The notes under the pieces were generated by a model. That model was given only the letters and a program-made list of their open reading frames with translations, was not told the origin of the DNA and made no database searches. Below are positions 5,699 to 46,922 of a stretch of 64,000 nucleotides of DNA, piece after piece. The stretch is from Escherichia virus TH41. A program made the position numbers and the translations under genes. The stretch lies in sequence record MT446412.1; one strand, written 5' to 3'. The number at the start of each line of letters is the position of its first letter. Within the stretch, counting starts at the first letter, position 1.

Positions 5699-5729
5699 TA
5701 TCCCATCAACTACTGATGAGGAGAACATT

Positions 5730-5906
5730 ATGACTATCCAAGATAAAGAAATTAAAGTCAACCAGTATTATTCAATCAACGGCAAAGCTGTTCTAGTAAC
5801 TGAAATATCTAGCCTGGATGTGTGGTATACCATAATTGACCTTAATATTAAAATGATTTGTGACCGTGGTGTATTTTGCTCGATAGCTAAGGAAATTAAA
5901 TTATGA
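5730..5906 (+). CDS. Hypothetical protein (58 aa)
   Basis: ATG 8 nt after GAGGAG in conserved leader; ATGA overlap with next ORF. Confidence 0.5.
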   Translation: MTIQDKEIKVNQYYSINGKAVLVTEISSLDVWYTIIDLNIKMICDRGVFCSIAKEIKL

Positions 5907-6157
5907 GCCTGAAATTACATTCAATGAAAAATGTCGCCACCCTTAATCTGGATGATGAGCGCCTAATTTTTATCACCGTCACTGATAAGAATATTGAAAT
6001 TGCAAATGGTCCTAAGACTTATTGTTGTCCAGTGAAGAATTGGAAACATGTAACCTTTTTGACCCTGGGTGACCGTCTGAAAGACCTTAAGTTGGATTTG
6101 GATGTCAAAGATATCCAGTACATTAAAAATCTTATTGGATACAAACTGCTGAGGTAA
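5903..6157 (+). CDS. Hypothetical protein (84 aa)
   Basis: ORF track. Confidence 0.5.
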   Translation: MSLKLHSMKNVATLNLDDERLIFITVTDKNIEIANGPKTYCCPVKNWKHVTFLTLGDRLKDLKLDLDVKDIQYIKNLIGYKLLR

Positions 6158-6159
6158 CT

Positions 6160-6453
6160 ATGGGTAAAACTATTCGTCGCAAAGAATTGTCTGTAAAAGA
6201 TTTTTATTATTCAGGGCGTCGTCAGGCGCCTGATGGTGTAAGTCAAGAACAAGTTGAAGAAAATATCTTCCGTTCAGACAAATGGAAGCGTATGCGTGGC
6301 GTTGATTCAGAAGTCAAGAATGAGATGAATCGTCAACTGCGTAAAGAAGTTCGTCAGTTGAAAAAAGATGTATACGTTGAGGATGATTTGGATTATAATA
6401 CTTCTCATCGTGTTGCAAAACGTAAATCAAACGAGTGTTATCGTTACAGCTGA
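6160..6453 (+). CDS. Hypothetical basic protein (97 aa)
   Basis: ORF track; GAGG upstream of ATG. Confidence 0.5.
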   Translation: MGKTIRRKELSVKDFYYSGRRQAPDGVSQEQVEENIFRSDKWKRMRGVDSEVKNEMNRQLRKEVRQLKKDVYVEDDLDYNTSHRVAKRKSNECYRYS

Positions 6454-6460
6454 GGAAAAT

Positions 6461-6658
6461 ATGAATCCACAATCTAAATTATCACAGCGAATTGCTGAAT
6501 CTCGTCGTCAGTTCTTTGAAAATATGATAGCTCAAGGTATTGATGACGAAGTTTTTCTAAACTGGTTTTGGAATCTCTATTATTCAAAATGTGCAGGAGC
6601 AATATTAATTTCTGCCGCGATGATGTATGAAGGTTGGAAAGGCGCAAAAGCGCAGTAA
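6461..6658 (+). CDS. Hypothetical protein (65 aa)
   Basis: ATG preceded by GAGGAAAAT; track start 6368 overlaps previous ORF and is less likely. Confidence 0.4.
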   Translation: MNPQSKLSQRIAESRRQFFENMIAQGIDDEVFLNWFWNLYYSKCAGAILISAAMMYEGWKGAKAQ

Positions 6659-6666
6659 AAACCAGC

Positions 6667-6688
6667 GGGGTCATGGTATAATGACCCC
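6667..6688 (+). promoter_or_regulatory. Perfect 8-bp inverted repeat GGGGTCAT/ATGACCCC enclosing TATAAT
   Basis: Read directly; same architecture as hairpins at 36894 and 47923. Confidence 0.45.
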
Positions 6689-6730
6689 AGGATAATAAAA
6701 TTTTAATTTAATGAGACTGAGGAATATATC

Positions 6731-7057
6731 ATGACTGCATCTATCACTAACACCATCGCTAATTTCGCATTTGCTAAAGTTAACACTCTGATGAAATCTG
6801 GTTTCGTTACCCCTGAGATTCTGGACCAGTGGGAAGGCGATGTACAGAAGCTGATTATTGCAGAAGGTCAGACAATGGGTAAAGCGCGTATTCGTGAAAG
6901 CCTTGTTCAGTATATCCTGAATGAATTTGATGTAGTAGCGTTTGGTCTGCCGCTTCCACGCGAAAACAAAGAAGTTTCTGACAAAGCCATCAAGCGCATG
7001 AACTCCCAACGTAAGAAAGGTTTTGTTGACCTGAAAATTATTAAGGGTGCGAAATGA
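6731..7057 (+). CDS. Hypothetical protein (108 aa)
   Basis: ORF track; GAGG 10 nt upstream. Confidence 0.55.
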   Translation: MTASITNTIANFAFAKVNTLMKSGFVTPEILDQWEGDVQKLIIAEGQTMGKARIRESLVQYILNEFDVVAFGLPLPRENKEVSDKAIKRMNSQRKKGFVDLKIIKGAK

Positions 7058-7317
7058 TGTGTCCTGCTATTGAATTACCTGAAGGTGTTGCGGTAATAGT
7101 ATCATACAAACATACGTATGCTAATGGAATTCGCCGAGCTCATAAAATTAGTCAAGGTTACTATTTACAAAGGACTTTAAATTATTTCATTTCAATGGGA
7201 TATGAATTCAGAATCTATCCTATGTGTACTAAAACCAAGTACACTAAAATCGATGCTTGGGAAGCTTGGGCGGAAGGCATGACATTAGACGAATTCCTGG
7301 ACTACTTAAATGATTAA
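7054..7317 (+). CDS. Hypothetical protein (87 aa)
   Basis: ORF track; ATGA overlap. Confidence 0.45.
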   Translation: MMCPAIELPEGVAVIVSYKHTYANGIRRAHKISQGYYLQRTLNYFISMGYEFRIYPMCTKTKYTKIDAWEAWAEGMTLDEFLDYLND

Positions 7318-7576
7318 AATAAAACTCTCTAATTACGATAAAAACTTGGAAATGATTACTATGAAAGAAGAACTCCTGAATGATGTTCGCTTTACGGGTT
7401 ATGCAGTTCAATTTAATGGTGATGGGGTTCTCCAGATTGAAGGTGACCACTTTATTATTGAATATGAATTCCACCAATATTGGTTGTATGCTAAAGATGA
7501 AGTTGGTGGGATTGATTATATTGACCAGTTTGATAAGCTTGATGATGTTTTAGAAGCTGCTCAATTGGTGTACTGA
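7310..7576 (+). CDS. Hypothetical protein (88 aa)
   Basis: ORF track; start overlaps previous stop. Confidence 0.45.
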   Translation: MIKIKLSNYDKNLEMITMKEELLNDVRFTGYAVQFNGDGVLQIEGDHFIIEYEFHQYWLYAKDEVGGIDYIDQFDKLDDVLEAAQLVY

Positions 7577-7842
7577 TGCACATCAATCATACAATGATAT
7601 CTATCCAGGACCTGGGAACGTTTTGGGTGGATGAATTCATGAAAATAACATTCTTCCCACACGCAGAAGGGTATGGCTCTTGGGAGTCTCATATCGGCAT
7701 GTTGAATGAAGGACAATACCGCAACGAGCATGACCGTCTGATGGAATTCATTAGTGATGCCGAGGTTATCCCTTATATTGACATCCATGAATTTAAGGCA
7801 ATTATGGAGAAGGTCTTCCAGGCTTACTGTTTACTTCGCTAA
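7576..7842 (+). CDS. Hypothetical protein (88 aa)
   Basis: ORF track; TGATG overlap. Confidence 0.45.
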   Translation: MHINHTMISIQDLGTFWVDEFMKITFFPHAEGYGSWESHIGMLNEGQYRNEHDRLMEFISDAEVIPYIDIHEFKAIMEKVFQAYCLLR

Positions 7843-7867
7843 TGCTTTGTATCAAGGATGATATAAT
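7843..7867 (+). promoter_or_regulatory. Candidate MotA-dependent middle promoter (TGCTT box, 14-nt gap, TATAAT) upstream of gene 55
   Basis: TGCTT 7843-7847 and TATAAT 7862-7867; same 14-nt gap as sites at 20200 and 38957. Confidence 0.4.
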
Positions 7868-7890
7868 ATTCATATACTAAGTGAGGCGAT

Positions 7891-8448
7891 ATGAACGAAA
7901 TTAAATTAACCAAGAATAACTATGTAAATAATAAAGAGCTTTTGAAAGCTATTTCGGAGTGGAAACAGAAGCTGAATGCGAACACCGACCCGAACAAAAT
8001 TATTCGCCAGAACGATGTTATTGGTCTGGCGATTATGCTTATAGCCGAAGGTCTTAGCAAACGTTTCAACTTCTCCGGATATACCCAATCCTGGAAGCAA
8101 GAAATGATTGCTGACGGTATTGAGGCCGCAATAAAAGGTCTTCACAACTTCGACGAAACAAAATACGATAATCCACATGCTTACATAACAATGGCTTGCT
8201 TCAATGCTTTCGTTCAGCGTATCAAAAAAGAACGTAAAGAAATGGCAAAGAAATATAGCTACTTCGTCCATAACGTATATGATTCACGTGACGACGATAT
8301 GGTGGCTCTGGCTGATGAAACATTTATCCAGGACATCTATGACAAAATGACACAGTACGAATCCTCTTTAGTTAAAGCGCCAGGGTCTGATAAGAGCGCC
8401 AAAGATAAAGAAGGTGATTTGGATTTTTTATATGGAACATCAATTTGA
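7891..8448 (+). CDS. 55: Late-transcription sigma factor gp55
   Basis: 185 aa (same length as T4 gp55); position between nrdH region and gene 47. Confidence 0.88.
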
Positions 8449-8665: not shown

Positions 8666-8666
8666 T

Positions 8667-9407: not shown

Positions 9408-9451
9408 GCTTTATATTCGGGATGATAAAATGAACCAACTGAGGAGAGTAT

Positions 9452-19124: not shown

Positions 19125-19154
19125 GTTTACAACGGCAATGGATTGCCGTATGAT
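19125..19154 (+). promoter_or_regulatory. Early-type promoter (GTTTAC-N18-TATGAT) with small internal hairpin
   Basis: Directly after gp43 stop; followed by CCCCATCAACTGATGAATAACTTGAGGA leader and ATG 19192. Confidence 0.5.
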
Positions 19155-19191
19155 TACCCCATCAACTGATGAATAACTTGAGGATATTAAA

Positions 19192-19434
19192 ATGGAAACA
19201 TTAATTGCGGGTACTGTTGTTCTTGGTGCAGGTTCTTTCTTCCTGGCTGCACTGGCATATTTTCTGCCGTGGATTATCGCGCTACTGCGTGGAACCAAAA
19301 GTAATTGCGGAATCTTCTTTGTTAACCTCCTGTTAGGTTGGACAATGGTCGGATGGTTTATTGCATTTATCTGGGCACTCGTTGCTGAACGTAAATCAAA
19401 CGCACAAGTAATTATCATCAAGGAATCAAAATGA
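19192..19434 (+). CDS. imm: Superinfection immunity protein Imm-like (two-TM membrane protein)
   Basis: 80 aa; two hydrophobic segments, motif NLLLGWTMVGWFIAFIWAL; adjacent to gene 43 as in T4. Confidence 0.55.
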   Translation: METLIAGTVVLGAGSFFLAALAYFLPWIIALLRGTKSNCGIFFVNLLLGWTMVGWFIAFIWALVAERKSNAQVIIIKESK

Positions 19435-20277: not shown

Positions 20278-21456
20278 ATGTCTATTGCAGATTTGAAATC
20301 CCGTTTGATTAAAGCTTCTACATCCAAAATGACTGCGACTCTTACCAAGTCCAAGTTCTTTAATGATAAAGATGTAGTTCGTACAAAAATCCCGATGCTG
20401 AACATTGCAATCAGCGGTGCACTAGATGGTGGTATGCAGTCAGGTTTGACTATTTTTGCTGGTCCGTCAAAACACTTTAAATCCAATATGGGTTTAACGA
20501 TGGTCTCTGCATATATGAACAAATACCCCGATGCAATCTGTTTGTTCTATGATTCAGAATTTGGTATCACAGAAGCATATCTTCGTGCAATGAAAGTTGA
20601 CCCGGAACGTGTTATCCATACACCAATCCAGTCGGTTGAACAATTGAAAGTTGATATGGTTAACCAGCTTGAAGCAATTGAGCGTGGTGAAAAAGTCATT
20701 ATCTTTATTGACTCAATCGGTAACATGGCGTCGAAAAAAGAAACAGAAGATGCGATGAACGAAAAAGTTGTTGGCGATATGACTCGTGCTAAATCCCTGA
20801 AATCTCTGTTCCGTATTGTTACCCCATATTTTAGTATCAAGGATATTCCTTGTGTCGCGGTTAACCATACAATTGAGACGATTGAGATGTACAGCAAAAC
20901 CGTTATGACCGGTGGCACAGGTGTTATGTATTCCGCAGACACCGTATTCATTATCGGCAAACGCCAGATTAAAGAAACTGGTAAAGAACTTGAAGGCTTC
21001 CAATTTGTTCTGAACGCCGAAAAATCTCGTATGGTCAAAGAGAAAAGTAAATTCTTCATTGATGTAAAATTCGATGGGGGTATTGACCCGTATTCTGGCC
21101 TGCTTGATATGGCAATGGAAATCGGATTTGTGGTGAAACCAAAAGTTGGTTGGTATAACCGTGAATATCTTGATGTTGAGACCGGCGAAATGGTCCGCGA
21201 AGAAAAATCATGGCGCGCAAAAGATACTAACTGCACCGAATTCTGGGGTCCGCTGTTCAAGCACGAACCTTTCCGTGATGCAATTAAACGCCATTACCAA
21301 CTGGGTGCAATCGATAGCAATGCTGTTGTTGATGCTGAAGTTGATGCGCTTATTGCCTCCAAGGTTGAAAAATACTCTGCTCCTGAAGGTAAGACAAAAC
21401 CGTCCGCTGCAGATATCGAAAACGATTTAGATATGATGGAAGACCTTGATGAATGA
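20278..21456 (+). CDS. uvsX: Recombinase UvsX (RecA-like)
   Basis: 392 aa; DLKSRLIKASTSK N-terminus, Walker A GPSKHFKS; very close to remembered T4 UvsX. Confidence 0.95.
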   Translation: MSIADLKSRLIKASTSKMTATLTKSKFFNDKDVVRTKIPMLNIAISGALDGGMQSGLTIFAGPSKHFKSNMGLTMVSAYMNKYPDAICLFYDSEFGITEAYLRAMKVDPERVIHTPIQSVEQLKVDMVNQLEAIERGEKVIIFIDSIGNMASKKETEDAMNEKVVGDMTRAKSLKSLFRIVTPYFSIKDIPCVAVNHTIETIEMYSKTVMTGGTGVMYSADTVFIIGKRQIKETGKELEGFQFVLNAEKSRMVKEKSKFFIDVKFDGGIDPYSGLLDMAMEIGFVVKPKVGWYNREYLDVETGEMVREEKSWRAKDTNCTEFWGPLFKHEPFRDAIKRHYQLGAIDSNAVVDAEVDALIASKVEKYSAPEGKTKPSAADIENDLDMMEDLDE

Positions 21457-21790: not shown

Positions 21791-23214
21791 AAACTATTTT
21801 ATCCCAGCTACTCTTTAACAAGGAATATTTTGTTAAAGTCTGGCCATATCTGAATAACACATATTTTGAAAAGGGTCCAGCAAAGACCCTTTTTAATACG
21901 ATTAACGAACACGTAAAAGAATATCAAGCGGTACCAACTAAGACTGCACTTGATATCGCGCTCGACAGTTCTGACCTTTCTGAAGTCGAATATGAAGGCA
22001 CAAAGAAACTCTTAGGAGTCCTGGCCGATACTCCAGAAGACCAGGAATGGTTGGTTAAAGAAACCGAGAAGTATGTACAGAAGTCTGCGATGTTCAATGC
22101 CACATCCAGGATTATCGAAATCCAGAGCAATGCCGAACTTCCGAAAGATAAACGTGATAAACGAATCCCGGATATTGGTGCTATCCCTGACATCATGCGC
22201 GATGCATTGTCTATCTGTTTTGACTCTGCTCTGGGCCATGACTGGTTAAACGATTACGAAGCTCGATTCCAGACTTATCTGAACAAATCGAAGAAGGTTC
22301 CGTTCCGTATTAACATCCTGAATAAAATCACGAAGGGCGGGGTTGAGTACGGTACAGAGAACGTTTTACTGGCCGGGACGAACGTCGGCAAATCCCTTGG
22401 ACTTTGTTCGCTGGCGGCTGACTATCTTCAGACTGGTCATAATGTGCTTTATATAAGCATGGAAATGGCTGAAGAAGTATGTGCCAAACGTATTGATGCC
22501 AACTTGCTGGATGTGTCTCTGGATGATATTGATGAAGGTCATGTGTCATGGGCGGAATACAAAAGTAAGATGGAAAAATGGCGTGCAGCCGGGACCCTTG
22601 GGACTCTGAAGATAAAACAATATCCAACTGGCGGTGCTCATGCGGATACCTTCCGTGCATTGCTGAATGAATACAAACTGAAGCAAGGGTTTGTGCCGGA
22701 TGTGATTATTGTTGACTACCTGGCAATCTGTGCAAGCTCAAGACTGAAAACGTTTACCGAAAACAGTTACGGCCTGATTAAGATGGTTGCAGAAGAACTT
22801 CGTGGTCTGGCGGTCGAGAAAAATGTGGTCCTGTGGACTGCAGCGCAGACAACCAGGGGTGCGAACGTTGCAGCTGAGATTGATATGGCTGACATCGCTG
22901 AATCTTTTGGTATTGCTCACACGGCCGACTTTATGTTGGGTGTTGTTGAGACCGAAGAATTCGCTCAAATGGGACTACAGTTAATCAAACAGCTTAAGTC
23001 TCGTTACGGCGATAAGAACTACTATAATAAATTCAAGATGGGTGTTAAGAAAGGTAATCAGCGCTGGTACGAGGTTGATGATGATTCAGCTCCTAAACAA
23101 GGCCCTACGGTTAAAGAAGCCACTGGTGAGATGAATCGCCAGGCTGAAATGAATAGACAAACCAGGGTCAACAGGAGCGACCTGGACGACCTTGCTGCTC
23201 AAATGAAATTCTAA
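21784..23214 (+). CDS. 41: Replicative DNA helicase gp41 (DnaB-like)
   Basis: GTG start giving MVETILSQLLF (T4: MVEIILSHLIF); Walker A GTNVGKSLG; near-identical blocks to T4 gp41. Confidence 0.93.
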   Translation: MVETILSQLLFNKEYFVKVWPYLNNTYFEKGPAKTLFNTINEHVKEYQAVPTKTALDIALDSSDLSEVEYEGTKKLLGVLADTPEDQEWLVKETEKYVQKSAMFNATSRIIEIQSNAELPKDKRDKRIPDIGAIPDIMRDALSICFDSALGHDWLNDYEARFQTYLNKSKKVPFRINILNKITKGGVEYGTENVLLAGTNVGKSLGLCSLAADYLQTGHNVLYISMEMAEEVCAKRIDANLLDVSLDDIDEGHVSWAEYKSKMEKWRAAGTLGTLKIKQYPTGGAHADTFRALLNEYKLKQGFVPDVIIVDYLAICASSRLKTFTENSYGLIKMVAEELRGLAVEKNVVLWTAAQTTRGANVAAEIDMADIAESFGIAHTADFMLGVVETEEFAQMGLQLIKQLKSRYGDKNYYNKFKMGVKKGNQRWYEVDDDSAPKQGPTVKEATGEMNRQAEMNRQTRVNRSDLDDLAAQMKF

Positions 23215-23233
23215 AGACCTTCGGGTCTTTTTC
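23213..23233 (+). terminator. Rho-independent terminator (AAGACC-TTCG-GGTCTT + T-run)
   Basis: UUCG hairpin followed by TTTTTC directly after gp41 stop. Confidence 0.7.
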
Positions 23234-23241
23234 ATTTAGAG

Positions 23242-23274
23242 GTTTACAACACCATAAAAAGGGTGTACTATTAT
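23242..23274 (+). promoter_or_regulatory. Degenerate early promoter (GTTTAC ... TATTAT) with conserved leader
   Basis: Spacer about 21 nt (long); followed by TATCCCATCAACTACTGATGAGGATAATAAA-ATG 23303. Confidence 0.35.
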
Positions 23275-23302
23275 CCCATCAACTACTGATGAGGATAATA
23301 AA

Positions 23303-23551
23303 ATGTTATTAGTTAATGTGCAGTACCAGTTCAAATCTGAAGAAGCTCTCCAAAAGTATGCTGATATTTGTGAGCATAATAAAAGAACAGCTGCCATTGT
23401 TGGTCTGAAGCCTTTTAAAATTTTGGATTGCTCCTTGAACAGAGCAAGACGCTGGTGTAGTGTTGCCTGTCATGCTTCAGTTGAAGGGAATGATTATTTT
23501 TTCATTACTTTCAATGCACAAGATTTTCATTTAATTAATGAATTAAAATAG
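23303..23551 (+). CDS. Hypothetical protein (82 aa)
   Basis: ATG after conserved leader with GAGGA. Confidence 0.55.
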   Translation: MLLVNVQYQFKSEEALQKYADICEHNKRTAAIVGLKPFKILDCSLNRARRWCSVACHASVEGNDYFFITFNAQDFHLINELK

Positions 23552-23580
23552 TGTACAAGCCCCTTGTCTTAGGACATAAT
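23551..23580 (+). promoter_or_regulatory. Early promoter GTGTAC-N18-CATAAT (PeSL-like)
   Basis: Followed by conserved GATTCCATACTGAGTTACAC block; ATG 23630. Confidence 0.6.
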
Positions 23581-23629
23581 GATTCCATACTGAGTTACAC
23601 AATAAACCAACTGTTAAAAGGAAAACCAT

Positions 23630-23932
23630 ATGTTTAATCAAACCGATATGAACCGTTACTATTTTGGTCAGTTCGCTCGCCGTGATGAAAACTGTGCTGC
23701 TCTTATCGCATCAGGCATTCAAACTGGTAAATTAATAAAGCTCAAAAGCGATGTTCAACCTTCATCTGTTCGCAGCTCTCTTCGTGAGTATCTGCTTGCA
23801 GGCGGGGCAGTATATGTTATCGCTGAACCTTTTGTTAACGTGTGCGACGATTACACAATTAGTGTGACTGTTATGCACCCAACTACTGGGAAAATTCGTT
23901 GTCTGACTATGCACAACTATGAGTTGGCGTAA
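23630..23932 (+). CDS. Hypothetical protein (100 aa)
   Basis: ORF track. Confidence 0.55.
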   Translation: MFNQTDMNRYYFGQFARRDENCAALIASGIQTGKLIKLKSDVQPSSVRSSLREYLLAGGAVYVIAEPFVNVCDDYTISVTVMHPTTGKIRCLTMHNYELA

Positions 23933-23937: not shown

Positions 23938-23961
23938 TAAAGGGGCTTACAGCCCCTTTTT
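23938..23961 (+). terminator. Rho-independent terminator (GGGGC-TTACA-GCCCC + T5) overlapping the next -35
   Basis: Stem plus TTTTT; loop CTTACA doubles as -35 of promoter 23946-23974. Confidence 0.65.
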
Positions 23962-23974
23962 CTTATGTTATAAT
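23946..23974 (+). promoter_or_regulatory. Early promoter CTTACA-N17-TATAAT
   Basis: TATAAT 23969-23974; leader CTATCAACTACTGGAGAATAAA then ATG 24001. Confidence 0.55.
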
Positions 23975-24000
23975 GACTCTATCAACTACTGGAGAATAAA

Positions 24001-24318
24001 ATGAAAACCATTGATTGCAAGGCAGAATACAAAGTTTATTATCATGGGTCAAGTTCTAATGCTGGAATCCAAAATATGCTTTGTCCTCCTGATGCAACTG
24101 GTGTTCTGTCAGAAGTTGGGCGTAAGAAAAATTTAGGGCGTGTGTTTTTTACTGAAGATATTGGTTTGGCGCGTATCTATGCAGGAAGAGCAGCTCGCTC
24201 ATATGGAGGAGAACCCCGTCTTTATCGTGTGATTGCACCTGTTGACGTGGTTTGTTTAAATGATACTAAAGGCGCAACAGTTTATCACGCTGACTGGGCC
24301 TTCTGTGAGGAAATCTAA
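24001..24318 (+). CDS. Hypothetical protein (105 aa); possible minimal ADP-ribosyltransferase-like fold
   Basis: Motif order YHGS ... FFTED ... LYRVIAP recalls small H-Y-E class ARTs; unverified. Confidence 0.55.
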   Translation: MKTIDCKAEYKVYYHGSSSNAGIQNMLCPPDATGVLSEVGRKKNLGRVFFTEDIGLARIYAGRAARSYGGEPRLYRVIAPVDVVCLNDTKGATVYHADWAFCEEI

Positions 24319-24864: not shown

Positions 24865-24894
24865 GTGTACATCAAAGGGGTAATGCAGTATATT
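24865..24894 (+). promoter_or_regulatory. Early promoter GTGTAC-N18-TATATT
   Basis: Leader ATCCCTATCAACTACTGAGGAGATTGAA then ATG 24923. Confidence 0.55.
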
Positions 24895-24922
24895 ATCCCT
24901 ATCAACTACTGAGGAGATTGAA

Positions 24923-25216
24923 ATGAAAAAGTTATTAATCGCAGCAATTCTTACCGTAGCATCATGTGGTACAGCCCCAGTTACTGCTGGGCTTGATAAA
25001 GACCTTTGTGAGTGGTCCATGACTGCGGACCAGACTGATGTTGAACACCAGATTTATGCTGACATCATGAACATTACTAAACGTGACCACCCAGATATGG
25101 TTAAAGAAGTATCTGACCAACTGGCTTCTGGTGACGTTATGCAGTATAACTATGTTCTGTATTGCGATGCTTCATTTGACAACAGCAAGATTGTTCAATG
25201 GGTTACAGGTGAATAA
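24923..25216 (+). CDS. Putative lipoprotein (97 aa)
   Basis: Signal peptide MKKLLIAAILTVASC with lipobox VASC. Confidence 0.55.
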   Translation: MKKLLIAAILTVASCGTAPVTAGLDKDLCEWSMTADQTDVEHQIYADIMNITKRDHPDMVKEVSDQLASGDVMQYNYVLYCDASFDNSKIVQWVTGE

Positions 25217-28984: not shown

Positions 28985-29218
28985 ATGGGTGGTTTCGTTA
29001 ATATCAAAACCTTTACGCATCCAGCTGGTGAAGGTAAAGAAGTTAAAGGTGTTGAAGTATCTGTTCCGTTTGAAATCTATTCAAATGAGCACCGTATTGC
29101 CAATGCTCATTATCAGACTTTTCCTTCCGAAAAGGCCGCTTATGTCACCGTAGCGTCTAGTGCAGCTGATTGGCGAACTAAGAACGCGGCGATGTTTACG
29201 CCTACCCCAGTAGTTTAA
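28985..29218 (+). CDS. soc: Small outer capsid protein Soc
   Basis: 77 aa; VNIKTF and AHYQTFPSEKAAY blocks match remembered T4 Soc. Confidence 0.8.
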   Translation: MGGFVNIKTFTHPAGEGKEVKGVEVSVPFEIYSNEHRIANAHYQTFPSEKAAYVTVASSAADWRTKNAAMFTPTPVV

Positions 29219-29223
29219 TTATA

Positions 29224-29246
29224 GGGAACCTTCGGGTTCCCTTTTT
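29224..29246 (+). terminator. Rho-independent terminator (GGGAACC-TTCG-GGTTCCC + T5)
   Basis: 7-bp stem, UUCG loop, T-run, directly after soc. Confidence 0.75.
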
Positions 29247-29294
29247 GCTTTTAATAGAAGCGGTATAATTATTTCAATTACAGAGGAGAATACT

Positions 29295-29492
29295 ATGTTA
29301 AACCGTTGGATTAAACCAAATAAAACTTTAGATGAAGTTATTGCCCATGATGTCCATTTTAAGTATGGTCTGGGTGTGTTTGATGAGGTTGTCGTACATT
29401 CATTCATGATGCACGATGATGATTCTTTAGAATTCAATATTGAAATCCGTTGTGATGATGGTAAAGTTGAATTTAAACGAGGTTTTCTATGA
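29295..29492 (+). CDS. Hypothetical protein (65 aa)
   Basis: ATG preceded by GAGGAG; TATAAT at 29264-29269. Confidence 0.5.
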   Translation: MLNRWIKPNKTLDEVIAHDVHFKYGLGVFDEVVVHSFMMHDDDSLEFNIEIRCDDGKVEFKRGFL

Positions 29493-31121: not shown

Positions 31122-31682
31122 ATGAACATCATCAAATCTGATACCGAACCCAACCAGTTAAAATTTAATGAAATGGAGATAGCTTCATTATTTGAATGCC
31201 GCGCATCAAAGGTTGATAAGACCTTACATTCAAACATCAACTCAATCATCAAGTCAAGGTTGTCTATACCTGATACAGTCTTGTATCGTGGGGTAACCCA
31301 GCAAGAGATTGATTTGTTAGATGAAGCAAAAGAATCAATGCAACCTTTTGAATTTGGAAGGATAACCTCCTTTACAGAAGACTATGGTATTGCCAGGGAT
31401 TTTGCTGCAATGGAATATGTGTCAAGGACTATCATCAGATTGAATCATACAAAAGCTTTTTGTTATCATGATGCGATGCGCAAAATCGCGCTTGACGTTC
31501 CACTGGAATTCTTCAATACAGCCTCTGGTTCCGAACAGGCAGCAACGTTAAGGCGTGAAGAATACATGGACATGATTGATTCTGAGCTTGAATGGTTTGT
31601 TCCAGTTGACCAGAAATTCGTGATAGTTGATGCTGGATTTGTTGATGATTATTATGTTCTTGACTGTGTACAAGAGCAATAA
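31122..31682 (+). CDS. modA: ADP-ribosyltransferase, ModA-like
   Basis: 186 aa; R-S-E triad candidates LYRG, ITSFTED, ELEWFVP; adjacent paralog; syntenic with T4 modA/modB. Confidence 0.6.
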   Translation: MNIIKSDTEPNQLKFNEMEIASLFECRASKVDKTLHSNINSIIKSRLSIPDTVLYRGVTQQEIDLLDEAKESMQPFEFGRITSFTEDYGIARDFAAMEYVSRTIIRLNHTKAFCYHDAMRKIALDVPLEFFNTASGSEQAATLRREEYMDMIDSELEWFVPVDQKFVIVDAGFVDDYYVLDCVQEQ

Positions 31683-31695
31683 GACACGTTAAGAT
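31666..31695 (+). promoter_or_regulatory. Early promoter GTGTAC-N18-TAAGAT inside 3' end of modA-like gene
   Basis: Followed by leader TCCTATCAACTACTGATGAGGATAATAAA and ATG 31727. Confidence 0.5.
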
Positions 31696-31726
31696 GTTCC
31701 TATCAACTACTGATGAGGATAATAAA

Positions 31727-32341
31727 ATGCTGTACACTGATGACGTTTTGAATGGAATTATTGACATTGCCGCTTCTAGTGAGTCTTTTCGTAACCAATG
31801 TCAAGCGGAGATTGATGCTCTTTATACAGATAATGAACAATCAGTACTCTGGCAGTGTATGGAAAATAAACCCGACCTGATTCAAGAAGACTTAACCAGG
31901 ATTATCCGCAACAATCTGAATACTGCACCACCTGCGGCATTGTTCCGTGGTATATCAAAGAAAACTATGGAATACCTGGAAGATTTCAGATATGTTGGTG
32001 CAACGATTGAGTTCAATCGTGTGATGAGTTTTTCCAGGGACTGGCAGGTTGCAAGAAATTTCGCATCATACAGTTTCTATGGCACAAGGAATATTTTCTG
32101 CATAAACAATGCACCATATGCGTATAACTATCAGGAAGCAATCTTTAAAATGATTTGTGGCGCTCCTCCTGAAGAGTTCAATGGTGCATATCCAGAAGCA
32201 ACCAGGAAGTCAAACTTACACCTGGTTAATGATGAGGATGAGTTTATGTTTCCCGCTGGGACTACGCTTCGCGTAGACTTGATTGAGACACACCCATTGA
32301 ATAACCTTTATACTGTTTGGCATTTGACTGTTTTGAACTAA
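31727..32341 (+). CDS. modB: ADP-ribosyltransferase, ModB-like
   Basis: 204 aa; LFRG, MSFSRD, EDEFMFP motifs; ATG follows conserved leader (track start 31694 is upstream). Confidence 0.6.
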   Translation: MLYTDDVLNGIIDIAASSESFRNQCQAEIDALYTDNEQSVLWQCMENKPDLIQEDLTRIIRNNLNTAPPAALFRGISKKTMEYLEDFRYVGATIEFNRVMSFSRDWQVARNFASYSFYGTRNIFCINNAPYAYNYQEAIFKMICGAPPEEFNGAYPEATRKSNLHLVNDEDEFMFPAGTTLRVDLIETHPLNNLYTVWHLTVLN

Positions 32342-32400: not shown

Positions 32401-32429
32401 GTGTACACACCCAATGGATGGTGTATAAT
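32401..32429 (+). promoter_or_regulatory. Early promoter GTGTAC-N17-TATAAT
   Basis: Preceded by AAAAGTA; followed by GAATCCATACTGAGTT block; ATG 32477. Confidence 0.6.
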
Positions 32430-32476
32430 GAATCCATACTGAGTTGCCAAATCGTCCGTAAGATGAGAAAAATATC

Positions 32477-33223
32477 ATGACTTTATCAAAAACCAAAACG
32501 TTGAAAGTTAAACGTCGTCTGGAACACACTCAAGCTTCCGCTAAACGCCGCGGTAAAGACTTTAACCTGGATTTTGATTATCTGGTTAATATTCTTGACC
32601 AAAAAGTTTGTGCTTATTCTGGTGAGACATTTAATAACTCTATTGAAGGTGAGAAGTTATCATTAGAGCGTTTTAACAATGATATTGGTTATATCAAGGG
32701 TAATGTTATTCCTGTTAAAAAGAAATACAATACCATGCGTTCTGATTGGTCCTTGGATGAGCTTAAACAACGTCGCGATGATGTTGCTGTAAAAATTGCT
32801 CGCCCCTCTGCCAAGAAGATTGAAAAGTTAAATCTGACTTCAGAGAAATGGGAACAGATTAAAAAGTCATATACTCATATCAAGAACATCCAGCACAAAC
32901 GTGATAATCGCGTTAAGCATTATGCTCAAATGAGTAAATCAGAGCAGTCCAAAGAAAACCAATTAAAAATGGTTGCTCTGAAGGCTCGCATTGATGGTTC
33001 CCGTGTTGCGGAAGGACATGAGCTTACTAAATTGAATGTCCTGCTCAAAGGTAATGACTGGAAAGTTACCAAGAAATTAACTGATGCTGAAACGCTTTTT
33101 GATTGCTATGATAAAATCATTCAAGGTCTTGAGCGTTTTGAGAAGATTGGTTTTATTGGTAAATTAAAACTGAAACGTGGTCTGCCTTTGAACGCGTCAA
33201 TTTTTAAACTGATTAGAGGTTAA
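32477..33223 (+). CDS. Hypothetical basic protein (248 aa); position corresponds to T4 srd
   Basis: ORF track; synteny only. Confidence 0.55.
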   Translation: MTLSKTKTLKVKRRLEHTQASAKRRGKDFNLDFDYLVNILDQKVCAYSGETFNNSIEGEKLSLERFNNDIGYIKGNVIPVKKKYNTMRSDWSLDELKQRRDDVAVKIARPSAKKIEKLNLTSEKWEQIKKSYTHIKNIQHKRDNRVKHYAQMSKSEQSKENQLKMVALKARIDGSRVAEGHELTKLNVLLKGNDWKVTKKLTDAETLFDCYDKIIQGLERFEKIGFIGKLKLKRGLPLNASIFKLIRG

Positions 33224-35803: not shown

Positions 35804-35833
35804 GTGTACAAGGCCAATGGAAAGAGACATAAT
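35804..35833 (+). promoter_or_regulatory. Early promoter GTGTAC-N18-CATAAT
   Basis: Preceded by AAAAAGTA; leader CATCTCATCAACTACTGATGAGGATAACAAA; ATG 35865. Confidence 0.6.
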
Positions 35834-35864
35834 CATCTCATCAACTACTGATGAGGATAACAAA

Positions 35865-36122
35865 ATGATTACTTCTTTTGAAATTGGCCAACAATATGAA
35901 ATGTCTGCTTTTCAAGCTGCTGAAGCAGGTCTGACTGAAGCGTTTGAATGTGCATTTACAAATATTCGTGGTAAAATCTTTACTGTCAATAAAATTGCGG
36001 TATATGATAAAGAAACAGACATGAACAAAGGCATCTACTTGAACGTGTCAAACGCAAAAGGCCGTCGTGAAATTATGGTTGTACAACCTAACCAACTGGC
36101 GATGTTCAATAAGGTTACATAA
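35865..36122 (+). CDS. Hypothetical protein (85 aa)
   Basis: ATG after conserved leader; in frame with track ORF 35817..36122. Confidence 0.5.
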   Translation: MITSFEIGQQYEMSAFQAAEAGLTEAFECAFTNIRGKIFTVNKIAVYDKETDMNKGIYLNVSNAKGRREIMVVQPNQLAMFNKVT

Positions 36123-36881: not shown

Positions 36882-36911
36882 GTGTACAAACTCGTGGGGC
36901 CAGAGTATAAT
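36882..36911 (+). promoter_or_regulatory. Early promoter GTGTAC-N18-TATAAT with -10 inside inverted repeat GTGGGGCC/GGTCCCAC
   Basis: Read directly; ATG 36954. Confidence 0.6.
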
Positions 36912-36953
36912 GGTCCCACTGGAGAATAAACTTATTAATCAAGAGAGAAAATT

Positions 36954-37445
36954 ATGAAAGTTGAAGCTGGTGATATTGTACGCGTTTCTAAAGAATCTCG
37001 TTCTAAAGCTGCTGGTCGTTTTGTTGAGGTTGTGGGTCTTCGCACTAATTTAGTAGGTGGAATTAAAGAAGTTAAAGTGCGTATTATTCCTAAAAATGGC
37101 CAGACTGAAACTCAATTGGCTTATGTACATCCTAAATTCCTGGAATCAACTGAATTTACTGGATATATCGCTCCTGTGGTTGAAGAAGTTGAAACCATTG
37201 ACCAGTCTCATGTTGGGGTTGATTTTAAATGGAAATTAGGTAAAGGTGTCTTTTTCGTTTCACCTAAACCGTTTGAATACAATTGCAAGTATGGTCCGAC
37301 TTATGAAACCACTAGCATGTCTGGTTATATCACAGACCAGTGGGTTGAAGAAGGGGTTAAACTGTATAATATTGTGTTCCTTGGAACCTTTAAGGTTGTT
37401 CCTGAAAGTTTTATCGTTGAGTATGCTGATATTCATTTTGCCTAA
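36954..37445 (+). CDS. Hypothetical protein (163 aa); size and position resemble T4 motB
   Basis: ORF track; paralogous C-terminus with 36122..36877. Confidence 0.55.
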   Translation: MKVEAGDIVRVSKESRSKAAGRFVEVVGLRTNLVGGIKEVKVRIIPKNGQTETQLAYVHPKFLESTEFTGYIAPVVEEVETIDQSHVGVDFKWKLGKGVFFVSPKPFEYNCKYGPTYETTSMSGYITDQWVEEGVKLYNIVFLGTFKVVPESFIVEYADIHFA

Positions 37446-41031: not shown

Positions 41032-41033
41032 CC

Positions 41034-41057
41034 AAAAGGACCTTCGGGTCCTTTTTT
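41034..41057 (+). terminator. Rho-independent terminator (GGACC-TTCG-GGTCC + T6)
   Basis: UUCG hairpin plus TTTTTT. Confidence 0.75.
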
Positions 41058-41060
41058 ATT

Positions 41061-41090
41061 ATGTACAAGCCATAAAAATTGCGTTAAGAT
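41061..41090 (+). promoter_or_regulatory. Early promoter ATGTAC-N18-TAAGAT
   Basis: Same architecture as GTGTAC family; ATG 41108 after GAGGTGAAAAT. Confidence 0.45.
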
Positions 41091-41107
41091 GTCCTTGAGG
41101 TGAAAAT

Positions 41108-41392
41108 ATGATTATGTCTGACGGAAGTTTAGTTAATCTACAGAATGTTGCTCGTTGTATTATGGAAGCAGGCCTGAGGAAGGTGCAGGAGCTCCCAGAT
41201 AGCGACAGGAAGCGAAGTTACTTGTTGGCTGTAAGAGCATCAGCCATGAGCATTAAGGCTGGCCAGAAGGTTCCTGAGGAGCGAATTGAAGCACTCCTTG
41301 CATTGATATACCATGGCCAAGAACATAAAGCTACCATGCGTAGTATGAGAAAAATATTACAGGAGATTGGAAATGACGAACTTCAAAGTTAA
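41108..41392 (+). CDS. Hypothetical protein (94 aa)
   Basis: ORF track. Confidence 0.5.
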   Translation: MIMSDGSLVNLQNVARCIMEAGLRKVQELPDSDRKRSYLLAVRASAMSIKAGQKVPEERIEALLALIYHGQEHKATMRSMRKILQEIGNDELQS

Positions 41393-41576: not shown

Positions 41577-41583
41577 GAAAAAC

Positions 41584-43818: not shown

Positions 43819-43819
43819 T

Positions 43820-44794: not shown

Positions 44795-44801
44795 ATTAAT
44801 C

Positions 44802-44815
44802 GGGGCTTCGGCCCC
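44802..44815 (+). promoter_or_regulatory. UUCG-tetraloop hairpin (GGGGC-TTCG-GCCCC), no U-tract
   Basis: Identical hairpin sequence to 14136-14149. Confidence 0.55.
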
Positions 44816-44827
44816 TAATGAGGCTTT

Positions 44828-45025
44828 ATGTTAGGTTTCCAAGCACGTGTAGTTGAAGAACATGACCAGCTGGTTTTGAAAATCAATGCTCTTGAAGAAT
44901 TTATTAAGGGCGGTGTTTTTGAAACTCTCGATGCTCGTCAACAAGGTCTTTTGATTGCCCAGTTAGATGCGATGGGCGCATATGCTCATATTCTGGCAAC
45001 TCGTATCTCTTATTTTGGTGAATAA
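44828..45025 (+). CDS. Hypothetical protein (65 aa)
   Basis: ATG preceded by GAGG. Confidence 0.5.
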   Translation: MLGFQARVVEEHDQLVLKINALEEFIKGGVFETLDARQQGLLIAQLDAMGAYAHILATRISYFGE

Positions 45026-45028
45026 ATT

Positions 45029-45349
45029 ATGATTAACTATATGAACGTTGGCGATGAATCTATTAATGAAATTCGGTTGCATGGTAATCATGTTGCGGAT
45101 ATTGTTTATTGTGTTGATTGTCATTATGCTTCTACAAAGTCAACTGGCCGGTTATATGCGAGAGACATCATTCTTGCAACGAAAGAAGAACTTCGTAGTC
45201 TGGACCATTCTACTCTAGCCGAAAGTGCCAGAATTTATTATGGCGTCGTTCATGTAGACAAAGTTTATATTGGCAGTGATTATCAAGAGCAAGCTGAGCA
45301 AAATTCTTTGGATATTGTCGAAAAATCCGATATGTATTTTAAAGGATGA
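45029..45349 (+). CDS. Hypothetical protein (106 aa)
   Basis: ORF track. Confidence 0.5.
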   Translation: MINYMNVGDESINEIRLHGNHVADIVYCVDCHYASTKSTGRLYARDIILATKEELRSLDHSTLAESARIYYGVVHVDKVYIGSDYQEQAEQNSLDIVEKSDMYFKG

Positions 45350-45353
45350 GCTG

Positions 45354-45947
45354 ATGATTCAGAAGAGTAAAACATGGGAGCATCTGAAAAAGATGCCCTC
45401 CTTTCTTTATACAAAGGAAGACTTAACCCCCGAATCCCTGCAAAAGATTGTAGATACAGCCAGGTATTCATTGCGTAAAGACCCGGGTCAGGACCGTGAG
45501 CAAGTCATGCAAAGATGTATGGTGGCTACAATGGCTGAACAAGCTATTGCTAAATGGACTTCAGGTTTTTTATGTGGCGGTGATGAAGATTACGATAATC
45601 CTTATTCCTTTGCATTTGATGTAGTTTCGAAGGAAGGGGTAAGAATCGAAGTCAAGACTCATCAGTCTGGTTCCAAATGGATATCCGTACATACTGGTCA
45701 CCAGGGTGATTATCCACATGGTTACGGGGTTAATCTTGGCCCTTTTATGCAGCACAAGCTTGCTGACCTTATGATTATGTTTAATGTAAAAGAGACTCTC
45801 AAAGGTTATAGATTTAAACCAAAATTCCTTGCTGGGCCTGGTGCTTTCGTTCCTGAGTCTGGTCTTGTGCAGAAATCACAAGGGGATGGCTGGTACCTCC
45901 GTTCTTGTTCAGAAGAAAAATTTCCCTATCACCGGTTTACAAGCTGA
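45354..45947 (+). CDS. Hypothetical protein (197 aa); size and position compatible with T4 denB
   Basis: ATG preceded by GGATGAG; no sequence-level recognition. Confidence 0.5.
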   Translation: MIQKSKTWEHLKKMPSFLYTKEDLTPESLQKIVDTARYSLRKDPGQDREQVMQRCMVATMAEQAIAKWTSGFLCGGDEDYDNPYSFAFDVVSKEGVRIEVKTHQSGSKWISVHTGHQGDYPHGYGVNLGPFMQHKLADLMIMFNVKETLKGYRFKPKFLAGPGAFVPESGLVQKSQGDGWYLRSCSEEKFPYHRFTS

Positions 45948-45964
45948 ACCAACTGTGTAATAAT
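45935..45964 (+). promoter_or_regulatory. Early promoter GTTTAC-N17-TAATAAT
   Basis: Inside 3' end of previous ORF; followed by RBS-containing hairpin. Confidence 0.4.
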
Positions 45965-45991
45965 GTCCTCATACCAACAAATGAGGACATT
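45962..45991 (+). promoter_or_regulatory. Perfect 11-bp stem-loop (AATGTCCTCAT/ATGAGGACATT) with the SD GAGGA in its 3' arm
   Basis: Read directly; ATG 45995 is 3 nt after the stem. Confidence 0.6.
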
Positions 45992-45994
45992 ATC

Positions 45995-46270
45995 ATGGAA
46001 CACGTTACTACTCACAACATCAAACAAATTCTTATCCAAGCACTCAAAAACAACAACATCAATTTTCCAACCCATGAAATTTTTGATGTAGCATTCAACG
46101 AAGTCCAGGGTCAAGTTGCATATTATGACGTTATCGTTTATCTTTCAGAATTTGAAGTCTACCACCTGACTGAAATTGCTTTCTATCTCTATCGTGGGAC
46201 TGCAGATTTTACTGGGGTCGTGAATGCAGTTGGCGCATATAAAGAAGTTAAAGAACAAATGCACAATTAA
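45995..46270 (+). CDS. Hypothetical protein (91 aa)
   Basis: ATG in frame within track ORF 45905..46270. Confidence 0.5.
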   Translation: MEHVTTHNIKQILIQALKNNNINFPTHEIFDVAFNEVQGQVAYYDVIVYLSEFEVYHLTEIAFYLYRGTADFTGVVNAVGAYKEVKEQMHN

Positions 46271-46280
46271 TTAAAAAGTA

Positions 46281-46310
46281 GTGTACATCAGTATGGAGTC
46301 TATGTATAAT
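46281..46310 (+). promoter_or_regulatory. Early promoter GTGTAC-N18-TATAAT
   Basis: Preceded by AAAAAGTA; followed by GATTCCATACTGAGTTACC; ATG 46345. Confidence 0.6.
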
Positions 46311-46344
46311 GATTCCATACTGAGTTACCAAACTGGAGAATAAA

Positions 46345-46500
46345 ATGAAACCTGCTCAATATGCAATGACTTTATACCTTGAAGTTAATGGCGATATTAC
46401 TGAATTTTTTAAATTAATGCAACAGCGCGGAAAAAGTTTTGCAGTTACTGAGCGTCAATTTTACGCTTGCCGTAAAAATACATACAATCGTTATGCGTGA
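46345..46500 (+). CDS. Hypothetical protein (51 aa)
   Basis: ATG after promoter and GGAGAATAAA; under track cutoff. Confidence 0.4.
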   Translation: MKPAQYAMTLYLEVNGDITEFFKLMQQRGKSFAVTERQFYACRKNTYNRYA

Positions 46501-46510
46501 GGAAAACAGA

Positions 46511-46777
46511 ATGGATATTAAATTATACTACGCCAAACACAAAGTTACAGGTATGGTTGTTGCTGCTATGTATGATGCGTCAGGTGATGGTGATGATATT
46601 ACTACAGAATTGTCTCTTTCTGAATGTAAATTTCTTCGCCCGCTAGTTGCCTCAAAGCGTGATTTAAAAAAGCTTATTGATGGAAAACTGGATAATGTTG
46701 ATGGCATAGATATTCTTTATGACCTTCGCACCGCATTGCACAGGGGTCTGATTGAAATAAAAGAGGTGATATTTTGA
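46511..46777 (+). CDS. Hypothetical protein (88 aa)
   Basis: ATG preceded by GAGGAAAACAGA; track start 46439 is upstream. Confidence 0.5.
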   Translation: MDIKLYYAKHKVTGMVVAAMYDASGDGDDITTELSLSECKFLRPLVASKRDLKKLIDGKLDNVDGIDILYDLRTALHRGLIEIKEVIF

Positions 46778-46867
46778 GCAGCAAAACCTGGTGTCTTATC
46801 TGGATGTTGTGTATCCCAGTAATTTGCGTTTGTTTTAGTTTATTATTAATGAAACTTGCATAAAAGA

Positions 46868-46896
46868 GTGTACATCTCCGGTGGTTGTAGTATAAT
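46868..46896 (+). promoter_or_regulatory. Early promoter GTGTAC-N17-TATAAT
   Basis: Leader CTATCAACTACTGGAGATGATT; ATG 46923. Confidence 0.55.
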
Positions 46897-46922
46897 GAAC
46901 CTATCAACTACTGGAGATGATT

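Follow-up and report, generated by a model that had tools for sequence, protein, structure and literature searches.

Shared leaders of unrelated small genes in Escherichia virus TH41 read as the downstream part of a repeated early-promoter cassette

Why should small genes whose products are unrelated be preceded by nearly the same short stretch of DNA? The question is raised by a 64,000-nucleotide (nt) stretch of the genome of Escherichia virus TH41 (sequence record MT446412.1), hereafter the window, in which the initial annotation had described one leader sequence shared by at least eight small genes and a second leader family following four further promoters, and had suggested that the transcripts could be controlled together through the T4 endoribonuclease RegB. 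According to our analysis, the leaders probably make up the last third, on the downstream side, of an early-promoter cassette that recurs in many copies and is of the promoter-early stem-loop (PeSL) type, and would form a short, unstructured 5′ untranslated region (UTR) with a RegB-sensitive ribosome-binding site. A PeSL-type element and the RegB site are both already known in T4 relatives, and the finding is real and mostly ordinary. A 4-kb piece of the window shares 99.5% identity with Escherichia phage UPEC01 and 95-97% with Shigella phage SP18 and its relatives; the window overall is ~99% identical to UPEC01, which places it among the SP18-like T4-type coliphages (Tevenvirinae, genus Gaprivervirus).

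The first leader family, A, is present at all eight sites originally listed for it, with correct coordinates: its 11-nt core ATCAACTACTG is exact at 5705, 23278, 23981, 24901, 31702, 35840, and 46903, and a shortened variant, CATCAACTGATG, occupies the eighth site (19160, upstream of imm). The described near-identity over 25-30 nt holds for four of these copies, while in the other four the common core is only 11-16 nt long and is followed by different Shine-Dalgarno sequences. The 20-mer CCATCAACTACTGATGAGGA, allowing at most one mismatch, matches at 5703, 23276, 31700, and 35838, against 0.02 matches expected, and a count of four was reached in 0 of 100 shuffles. The second family, B (CCATACTGAGTT), is likewise present at all four of its sites, the 18-mer GATTCCATACTGAGTTAC lying at 23581, 32430 (2 mismatches), 46311, and 50525, where 0.07 matches are expected; there is a fifth match at 46283 on the minus strand, where the inverted copy forms the stem-loop across the -10 element of cassette B3 (Table 1). 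We also recognized a third family, C, with the pattern CCCAC-TGGAG/GGAT, at 6657, 36882 (motB), 47498, and 47910 (ndd), the transcribed leaders of which begin with ACUGGAG or GUGGAU. Measured from the predicted start, transcribed leader A (AUCAACUACUG...) is 14-31 nt long and transcribed leader B (AUACUGAGUUAC...) 28-43 nt. The downstream proteins are unrelated, as had been proposed, no pair reaching E < 0.05 in an all-against-all blastp comparison, and the conservation is one of nucleotides upstream of unrelated genes. A literature search with the motif strings returned unrelated matches only. An upstream mini-open reading frame (ORF) starting from the ATG in CTGATGAGG was considered and rejected on reading the sequences, as only the TGATGAGG variants have it, and they have it without a ribosome-binding site.

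All A and B copies lie on the + strand, directly after a promoter of the form GTGTACA (or GTTTACA, GCTTACA)-N16/17-TAnnnT, usually with a AAAAAGTA tract upstream, and an independent consensus scan also lists promoters at 23243, 23552, 23946, and 24866. From general sigma-70 rules we infer that transcription starts at the A of CC-A-TC or CC-A-TA, 7 nt from the -10 element. The leader as originally described is not all transcript: its first ~6 nt (TATCCC, GATTCC), placed between the -10 hexamer and the predicted start, are the promoter discriminator and would be untranscribed. The initial annotation had itself allowed that the leaders might be merely the 3′ portion of the promoter cassette, and this is half true, in that they are its 3′ portion and begin inside the promoter. 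At the other end, leaders of 11-43 nt lead straight to GGAG or GAGGA and the ATG, the cassette thus ending in Shine-Dalgarno sequence and start codon. Genome-wide counts, made on ~168 kb assembled of UPEC01, gave ~15 A cores (16 with the imm variant) and ~13 B cores after early promoters, all on the early strand, with ~30 similar cassette copies across the genome. In the profile of a set of 42 early promoters, which also served for the stem-loop statistics given below, positions -6 to +2 (G-a-T-Y-C-C-A-T) carry ~0.4-1.3 bit each, with at least 0.9 bit at 5 of the 8, on a par with -12 and -10 within the -10 hexamer. A preference for NAD capping was set aside, as the pyrimidines at -2/-1 do not seem to match the published consensus for it.

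PeSL cassettes, which drive the immediate-early genes in T4-like phages, were described in RB49 and phi1 (Arbiol et al. 2010, PMC2839356) and in PST/T4 and nt-1/KVP40 (Comeau et al. 2014, PMC4122927). They extend from the upstream stop codon through a stem-loop and the -35 and -10 elements to the Shine-Dalgarno sequence and ATG, and crossovers were mapped between the -10 element and the ATG (PMC2839356; PMC4122927); the criteria for PeSLs also include mini-circles excised via recombination between flanking cassettes. The cassettes in TH41 resemble PeSLs in their AT-rich tract, in -35 and -10 elements with a 17-bp spacer, in a stem-loop upstream of, inside, or across the promoter, and in the Shine-Dalgarno sequence and start codon at their end, as well as in the many near-identical copies that stand before unrelated small ORFs in plastic early regions and, in individual cases, in the indels and gene replacements between close relatives that abut them. 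They differ in the -35 element, which is TTGACA in the RB49 PeSLs and GTGTACA here (T4-like GTTTAC), and in that poly-G/poly-C stems, a PeSL trait, are uncommon. In addition, the segment from -10 to ATG here falls into two or three discrete near-invariant families, whereas the PeSL papers align this segment without singling it out. No PeSL catalog for SP18-like phages was found in the literature, where only "PeSL-like sequences" close to JS98 gene 43 are mentioned.

In 8 of the 42 promoters, a perfect stem of 7 bp or more spans the -10 element, compared to a mean of 0.5 and a maximum of 3 with shuffled spacers. These inverted repeats link the spacer with the discriminator and +1 region, and the sequences of their arms vary among cassettes (TCAGTATGGA/TCCATACTGA at 46288/46314, TGGGGTCA/TGACCCCA at 47923/47939, and GATGGGATA/TATCCCATC elsewhere in the genome). 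The stem at the sp promoter is a perfect 11-bp one in SP18 and MN01, and imperfect in the window (cassette A5). Other cassettes have a hairpin in the spacer (19125, 23242) or around the -35 element (5661-5684, 23939-23961), or an upstream terminator. The hairpins at 5661-5684 and 23939-23961 are terminator-like and G/C-rich in their stems, with the -35 element of the next promoter as their loop (AAAGGGG-TGTACAA-GCCCCTTT); upstream termination and the next initiation would use the same ~25 bp at these two places.

Gene replacements and indels that abut the cassettes are seen in several clear cases, one of them at modA, which encodes an ADP-ribosyltransferase. Compared to SP18 (window 31666-31950; SP18 29124-29490), identity is near 100% from the end of modB across the promoter and leader A to nucleotide 7 of modA, and beyond this point it falls to roughly 55%; modA is an allelic replacement with the leader and start codon as its left junction. 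MN01 is without 23216-23550, a single unit of terminator, promoter, leader A, and 82-aa ORF (MN01 junction 21217-21233), and the missing stretch is bounded downstream by the -35 element of the cassette that follows. The promoter of that cassette has acquired, in MN01, the left arm of a hairpin around its -35 element. SP18 shows a deletion of the segment upstream of the promoter at 24865, and MN01 has other sequence in its place. Overall, breaks adjoin the conserved cassette core in 5 of 20 comparisons, against 4.3% of random segments (p = 0.0013).

The second part of the proposed reading concerns RegB. Its target, together with ribosomal protein S1, consists of 11 single-stranded nt, GGAGAAUAAAA in T4 and generally GGAGRAYARAA; GGAU is tolerated only with a strict A-rich tail after it, and no sequence is required upstream of GGAG (Durand et al. 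2006, PMC1702504). T4 targets lie in the translation initiation regions and leaders of early transcripts (PMC1702504; Uzan and Miller 2010, PMC3014915), and T4 regB has its own early promoter and a GGAG Shine-Dalgarno sequence, its message being cut by RegB itself (PMC3014915). The GGAG of the leaders, which had suggested RegB in the first place, proves to be part of the full 11-mer: GGA[G/T]RAYARAA occurs nine times on the + strand of the window and never on the - strand, against 0.7 expected, and all nine occurrences are in leaders. Three have the exact T4 consensus GGAGAATAAAA (23991, 46335, 50564) and the remaining six are of the form GGA[G/U]RAYARAA, namely GGATAATAAAA at 6690, 23293, 31717, and 47536, GGATAACAAAA at 35855, and GGATGATAAAA at 9420. 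Seven of the nine follow a catalogued early-type promoter, and the one at 6690 follows a -10 element without a clear -35. The RegB-like GGATGATAAAATG at 9420-9430 comes after TGCTTTA-N12-TAAAAT, a MotA-box (middle-type) promoter candidate and not an early cassette. The UPEC01 genome has 17 such sites on the + strand, 13 of them no more than 70 nt away from a scored early promoter, and 2 on the - strand. Judged by the weak folds of six representative leaders of families A and B, four of them with such a site, the target is predicted to be unpaired.

A regB homologue elsewhere in the genome, which the initial annotation had suggested looking for, is probable from the ~99% identical relative UPEC01, which encodes a clear one ~12 kb upstream of the window start (UPEC01 5850-6347; Pfam REGB_T4, E = 1.9e-71). 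The deposited UPEC01 coding sequence starts at 5850, within its own early promoter (region 5832-5892), and an A-like leader, ATCAAACAAAAGGAGATAATC, with a GGAG Shine-Dalgarno sequence precedes an ATG at ~5889, which is likely the real start and gives 152 aa compared to the 153 aa of T4 RegB. Such a leader before regB agrees with T4, in which the regB message is itself a RegB target. In the 3′ half of the leaders, ribosome-binding and RegB site are thus very probably combined, an arrangement familiar from T4 and now also read in this genus, and by analogy with T4 the messages may share post-transcriptional control by RegB. Cleavage is known for the T4 RegB/S1 sites; the sites here are predicted from sequence, and the conserved block upstream of GGAG is outside the known target. 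Since RegB needs no sequence upstream of GGAG, it does not explain the family-defining blocks (ATCAACTACTG, ATACTGAGTTAC), which are located 5′ of the RegB site.

The cassette can be pictured as follows. Its 5′ part would comprise an A-rich UP-like tract, the -35 element GTGTACA, a 17-bp spacer, the -10 element, and a C-rich discriminator (TATCCC, GATTCC, or GGTCCC), and its 3′ part the predicted start A, the ~10-nt conserved block (AUCAACUACUG or AUACUGAGUUAC), and an initiation region ending in AUG, in which the Shine-Dalgarno sequence and A-rich spacer may double as RegB/S1 target (GGAGAAUAAAA or GGAUAAUAAAA). If T4 biology applies, host sigma-70 RNA polymerase would fire these promoters at infection, the short unstructured 5′ UTR would allow immediate and efficient translation, and minutes later RegB with S1 would cut within the Shine-Dalgarno sequence and switch the messages off jointly. 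The evolving unit would be the cassette and not the gene, with copies recombining and converting each other and genes being swapped, inserted, and deleted at the edges, while selection on the start site, the initial transcribed sequence, the ribosome-binding site, and the RegB site would keep the segment from +1 to ATG near-invariant. The first ~12 transcribed nt could serve promoter escape or start-site selection, offer the ribosome or S1 an unstructured standby site, or be a dedicated recognition element. We infer the exact transcription start, cleavage by RegB, and the role of the initial transcribed block, and it is from T4 that the start site and RegB cutting are extrapolated to TH41.

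Several further observations weigh against this reading. The strong conservation of the AUCAACUACUG and AUACUGAGUUAC blocks is without a demonstrated function in the cassette model. A clear stem-loop across the -10 element is present in only about one-fifth of the cassettes, GAGGA-U takes the place of GGAG in four of the eight A copies, and a tblastn search of the 64-kb window itself gave no significant match to regB. Breakpoints also fall at other gene starts (12 of 100, compared to 5 of 20 at cassettes; p = 0.12), which is no significant enrichment; the idea of the cassettes as statistically proven recombination hot spots was dropped for this reason, and their role in recombination is argued by examples, not by statistics.

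Table 1. Early-type promoter cassettes catalogued in the window (predicted +1 positions and RegB-like sites are read from sequence)
Cassette	Location	Strand	Promoter and hairpin elements	Predicted +1	Leader and RegB-like site	Start codon
A1	5669-5732	+	-35 GTGTACA 5669-5675, loop of hairpin 5661-5684; -10 TATCAT 5693-5698; discriminator TATCCC	5705	ATCAACTACTGATGAGGAGAACATT	ATG 5730 (58-aa ORF, gp55.6 position)
Family C-like	6657-6733	+	stem GGGGTCA 6667-6673 / TGACCCC 6682-6688 across -10 TATAAT 6677-6682; no clear -35		RegB-like GGATAATAAAA 6690-6700	ATG 6731
A2 (variant, upstream of imm)	19125-19194	+	-35 GTTTACA; spacer hairpin CGGCAAT/ATTGCCG; -10 TATGAT 19149-19154	19161	ATCAACTGATGAATAACTTGAGGATATTAAA	ATG 19192
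A3	23242-23305	+	upstream terminator 23213-23232; -35 GTTTACA; -10 TACTAT 23266-23271	23278	ATCAACTACTGATGAGGATAATAAA; RegB-like GGATAATAAAA 23293-23303	ATG 23303 (82-aa ORF)
B1	23551-23632	+	-35 GTGTACA; -10 CATAAT 23575-23580; discriminator GATTCC	23587	43 nt, ATACTGAGTTACACAATAAACC...	ATG 23630 (100-aa ORF)
A4	23945-24003	+	-35 GCTTACA in loop of terminator hairpin 23939-23961; -10 TATAAT 23969-23974	23981	ATCAACTACTGGAGAATAAA; exact T4 RegB/S1 consensus GGAGAATAAAA 23991-24001	ATG 24001 (105-aa ORF upstream of dmd)
A5 (upstream of sp)	24865-24925	+	-35 GTGTACA; imperfect stem AGGGGTAAT 24876-24884 / ATTATCCCT 24892-24900 across -10 TATATT	24901	ATCAACTACTGAGGAGATTGAA	ATG 24923
A6 (upstream of modA)	31666-31729	+	promoter within modB 3′ end; modB stop codon inside -10 TAAGAT	31702	ATCAACTACTGATGAGGATAATAAA; RegB-like 31717-31727	ATG 31727
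B2 (upstream of srd)	32401-32479	+	16-nt spacer; -10 TATAAT 32424-32429	32436	ATACTGAGTTGCCAAATCGTCCGTAAGATGAGAAAAATATC, 3′ half conserved with T4 srd	ATG 32477
A7 (after dexA)	35804-35867	+	-10 CATAAT 35828-35833	35840	ATCAACTACTGATGAGGATAACAAA; RegB-like GGATAACAAAA 35855-35865	ATG 35865 (85-aa ORF)
C1 (upstream of motB)	36882-36956	+	stem GTGGGGCC 36894-36901 / GGTCCCAC 36912-36919 across -10 TATAAT	36918	GGAGAATAAAC at leader 5′ end (layout as in T4 motB)	ATG 36954
Other early-type	41061-41110	+	terminator 41034-41057; ATGTACA-N17-TAAGAT		11 nt, GAGGTGAAAAT	ATG 41108
B3	46281-46347	+	perfect 10-bp inverted repeat TCAGTATGGA 46288-46297 / TCCATACTGA 46314-46323 across -10 TATAAT	46317	ATACTGAGTTACCAAACTGGAGAATAAA; exact RegB/S1 consensus 46335-46345	ATG 46345 (51-aa ORF)
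A8	46868-46925	+	16-nt spacer; -10 TATAAT 46891-46896	46903	ATCAACTACTGGAGATGATT	ATG 46923, probable (38-aa membrane peptide)
C2	47498-47568	+	stem CATGGGAGC 47509-47517 / GTTCCCGTG 47528-47536 across -10		RegB-like GGATAATAAAA 47536-47546	ATG 47566 (114-aa ORF)
C3 (upstream of ndd)	47910-47986	+	perfect 8-bp stem TGGGGTCA 47923-47930 / TGACCCCA 47939-47946 across -10 TATAAT		ACTGGAGCACAAAAC...	ATG 47984
B4	50495-50576	+	upstream terminator 50460-50480; -10 CATAAT 50519-50524	50531	ATACTGAGTTACACAATGAATCACAAAAACTTTGGAGAATAAA; exact RegB/S1 consensus 50564-50574	ATG 50574
Other early-type	53195-53276	+	GTGTACA-N17-TATAAT; discriminator ACCCTT		ACTGAATAATTG...	ATG 53274 (asiA position)

Among the other explanations, the one that survives best is that the blocks are hitch-hikers, identical via recent duplication and conversion, with only the hexamers and the ribosome-binding site being functional. 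Exchange of this kind seems to have left traces even between the ~99% identical genomes of TH41 and UPEC01, where two of the densest clusters of differences in the early region are promoter spacers, 50503-50518 in cassette B4 (8 of 16 positions, the UPEC01 version being the spacer of the cassette at 23551) and 32408-32449 in cassette B2 (14 of 42 positions). These patches look like ectopic gene conversion between cassettes. Furthermore, a 91-bp segment (41052-41142) with the promoter ATGTACA-N17-TAAGAT and the start of a small ORF is present twice in tandem in UPEC01 and once in the window, and chimeric cassettes, in which a B-type -10 element and discriminator stand with an A leader, are found at UPEC01 85570 and 95028. 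Family B is multi-copy in Gaprivervirus only, and T4 has a different leader at the gp55.6 position, which points to homogenization within the Gaprivervirus lineage. What makes this explanation nevertheless unlikely in our view is the uneven distribution of changes within the same ~60-bp cassette. Across 11 cassettes compared to SP18 and MN01, the share of positions that differ is 1.9% for +1 to +12 and 3.9% for what remains of the leader, and it is 4.5% for the two promoter hexamers (-35 and -10), 9.1% for the discriminator, 12.6% for the spacer, and ~15% for the flanks, so that +1 to +12 is the least variable part of the cassette, less variable than the promoter hexamers. Conversion alone would homogenize spacer and initial transcribed sequence alike, and the contrast between 12.6% and 1.9% therefore counts against hitch-hiking. 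The ATCAAC start is also kept at equivalent promoters of T4, JS98, and a Klebsiella phage despite unrelated spacers. The start region seems to be under selection, and the cassettes seem to evolve in concert as well.

Outside the genus, leader A is found at the promoter of the internal-protein (IP) locus of a Tequatrovirus and in a Klebsiella T4-like phage, in the form ...TATCAACTACTGAGGAGAATAA(A/C)ATG behind unrelated spacers; the Tequatrovirus promoter, GTTTACAtagggttttagttgtgATACTATTACCCTATCAACTACTGAGGAGAATAAAATG, combines leader A with the same type of stem across the -10 element (ATAGGGT/ACCCTAT) as in the window. Repeated early-promoter elements of T-even IP loci were reportedly the subject of work by Repoila et al. 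in 1994, according to PMC2839356. The sp, imm.1, and motB.2 promoters of T4 have degenerate versions (ATAAACTACTGAGGAG, ATCAACTACTGA, ATAGCTACTGAGGATAATAAAATG), and T4 motB has the family C layout. The motif is thus degenerate and confined to few promoters in T4, compared to ~15 nearly identical copies and a genus-specific family B in Gaprivervirus. ATCAAC begins 6 of 16 early leaders in JS98. A looser likeness is seen in RB49, where the discriminator is C-rich, the leaders behind it open with ATCGAAAAC or ATCAAAAC, and their last part is GGAGAATCAAA-ATG.

A more specific possibility, to which we give a low probability, is that the block from -6 to +12 (YCC-AUCAACUACUG or YCC-AUACUGAGUUAC) is a dedicated recognition element for a specific factor, acting at the DNA or RNA level. 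That it would be a handle for the collective shut-off of early promoters 2-4 min after infection, a determinant of their stimulation through Alt-modified RNA polymerase, or a 5′ tag of early messages is similarly doubtful. In each of these cases the block would be more than a side effect of recombination among cassettes. Such an element would fit a block that is exclusive to early-type promoters (neither A nor B blocks occur at any of 18 MotA-box candidates), carries as much information as the core hexamers, varies less than any other part of the cassette, and is common to at least four T4-like genera; according to reviews, moreover, it is unknown how early promoters are shut off and which promoter features underlie stimulation by Alt. 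On the other hand, no candidate factor was identified, the coexistence of blocks A and B with family C and further leaders speaks against one common recognition sequence, and T4, in which shut-off was studied, has the block at few early promoters only.

A structured cis-regulatory RNA, in which a CAUCA-ACUAC-UGAUG hairpin or another fold would act as 5′ stabilizer, attenuator, or sensor, is largely refuted and retains very little probability. The isolated 15-mer can make a 5-bp hairpin of -2.5 kcal/mol, and in RNA that begins further upstream the full cassettes fold strongly (-17 to -25 kcal/mol; z -3.2 to -4.6). However, when folding begins at the predicted +1, the six representative leaders of families A and B reach only -1.4 to -4.3 kcal/mol and do not surpass shuffled sequences (z -0.3 to +1.3), and Rfam gives no match at gathering score within the window. 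A shared leader structure, for which the initial annotation had recommended a covariation analysis, is not borne out: in 25 copies of CATCA-ACTAC-TGATG representing five phage groups and taken from the window, UPEC01, JS98, T4, a Tequatrovirus, and a Klebsiella phage, covariation equals that of the shuffle control (148/500). The hairpin was rejected on these grounds, its pair A8-U20 being broken in 18 of the 25 copies and its outermost pair requiring the untranscribed -1 base. We also rejected a variant in which the -10 stem-loop hides the ribosome-binding site only in read-through RNA: the accessibility of the initiation region is 0.66 in the own transcript and 0.48 in read-through RNA, which equals the control with shuffled upstream sequence (0.51; p = 0.39), and the effect is generic. 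Chance or low-complexity resemblance among AT-rich ribosome-binding regions can be dismissed, for although the 3′ parts (GAGGA, AATAAAATG) are generic T4-type ribosome-binding-site sequence, this explanation is refuted by four 20-mer matches against 0.02 expected, five 18-mer matches against 0.07, and a core always at a fixed distance from the -10 element and on one strand.

If the leaders are read as part of PeSL-type early-promoter cassettes, the latter provide a sequence-defined catalog of immediate-early transcription units in SP18-like therapeutic coliphages and predict which messages RegB would turn off together. They also mark points of gene exchange between related phages, which is useful for the prediction of mosaicism, and suggest a compact, portable combination of strong promoter, 5′ UTR, and ribosome-binding site for engineering. 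Only the conservation of the first ~12 transcribed nt goes beyond textbook T4 biology, and these nt, if functional, would open a way into the unsolved question of the shut-off of T4-type early promoters.

The surroundings of the cassettes are those of a T4-type genome. The window is syntenic with T4 from nrdD through gene 52, and its + strand corresponds, according to the annotation of UPEC01, SP18, and T4, to the classical T4 early/middle region, with nrdD, 55, 47, 46, 45, 44, 62, regA, 43, imm, uvsX, 41, dmd, sp, 61, 56, soc, modB, modA, srd, dda, dexA, motB, 39, rIIA, rIIB, denB, ndd, 52, motA, and asiA. Upstream of denB, 316 bp (45037-45352) have no counterpart in UPEC01, and MN01 differs there (244 bp); this appears to be a small gene replacement, with no recognizable cassette flanking it. 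From ~54 kb onward, where the GC skew flips, tail-fiber genes occupy the opposite strand. The window is only ~88-90% identical to UPEC01 at 55127-56285 and over most of 54000-64000, and a ~1-kb stretch of the minus-strand tail-fiber genes is unalignable to it. The divergence in this tail-fiber/adhesin region probably reflects host-range variation.

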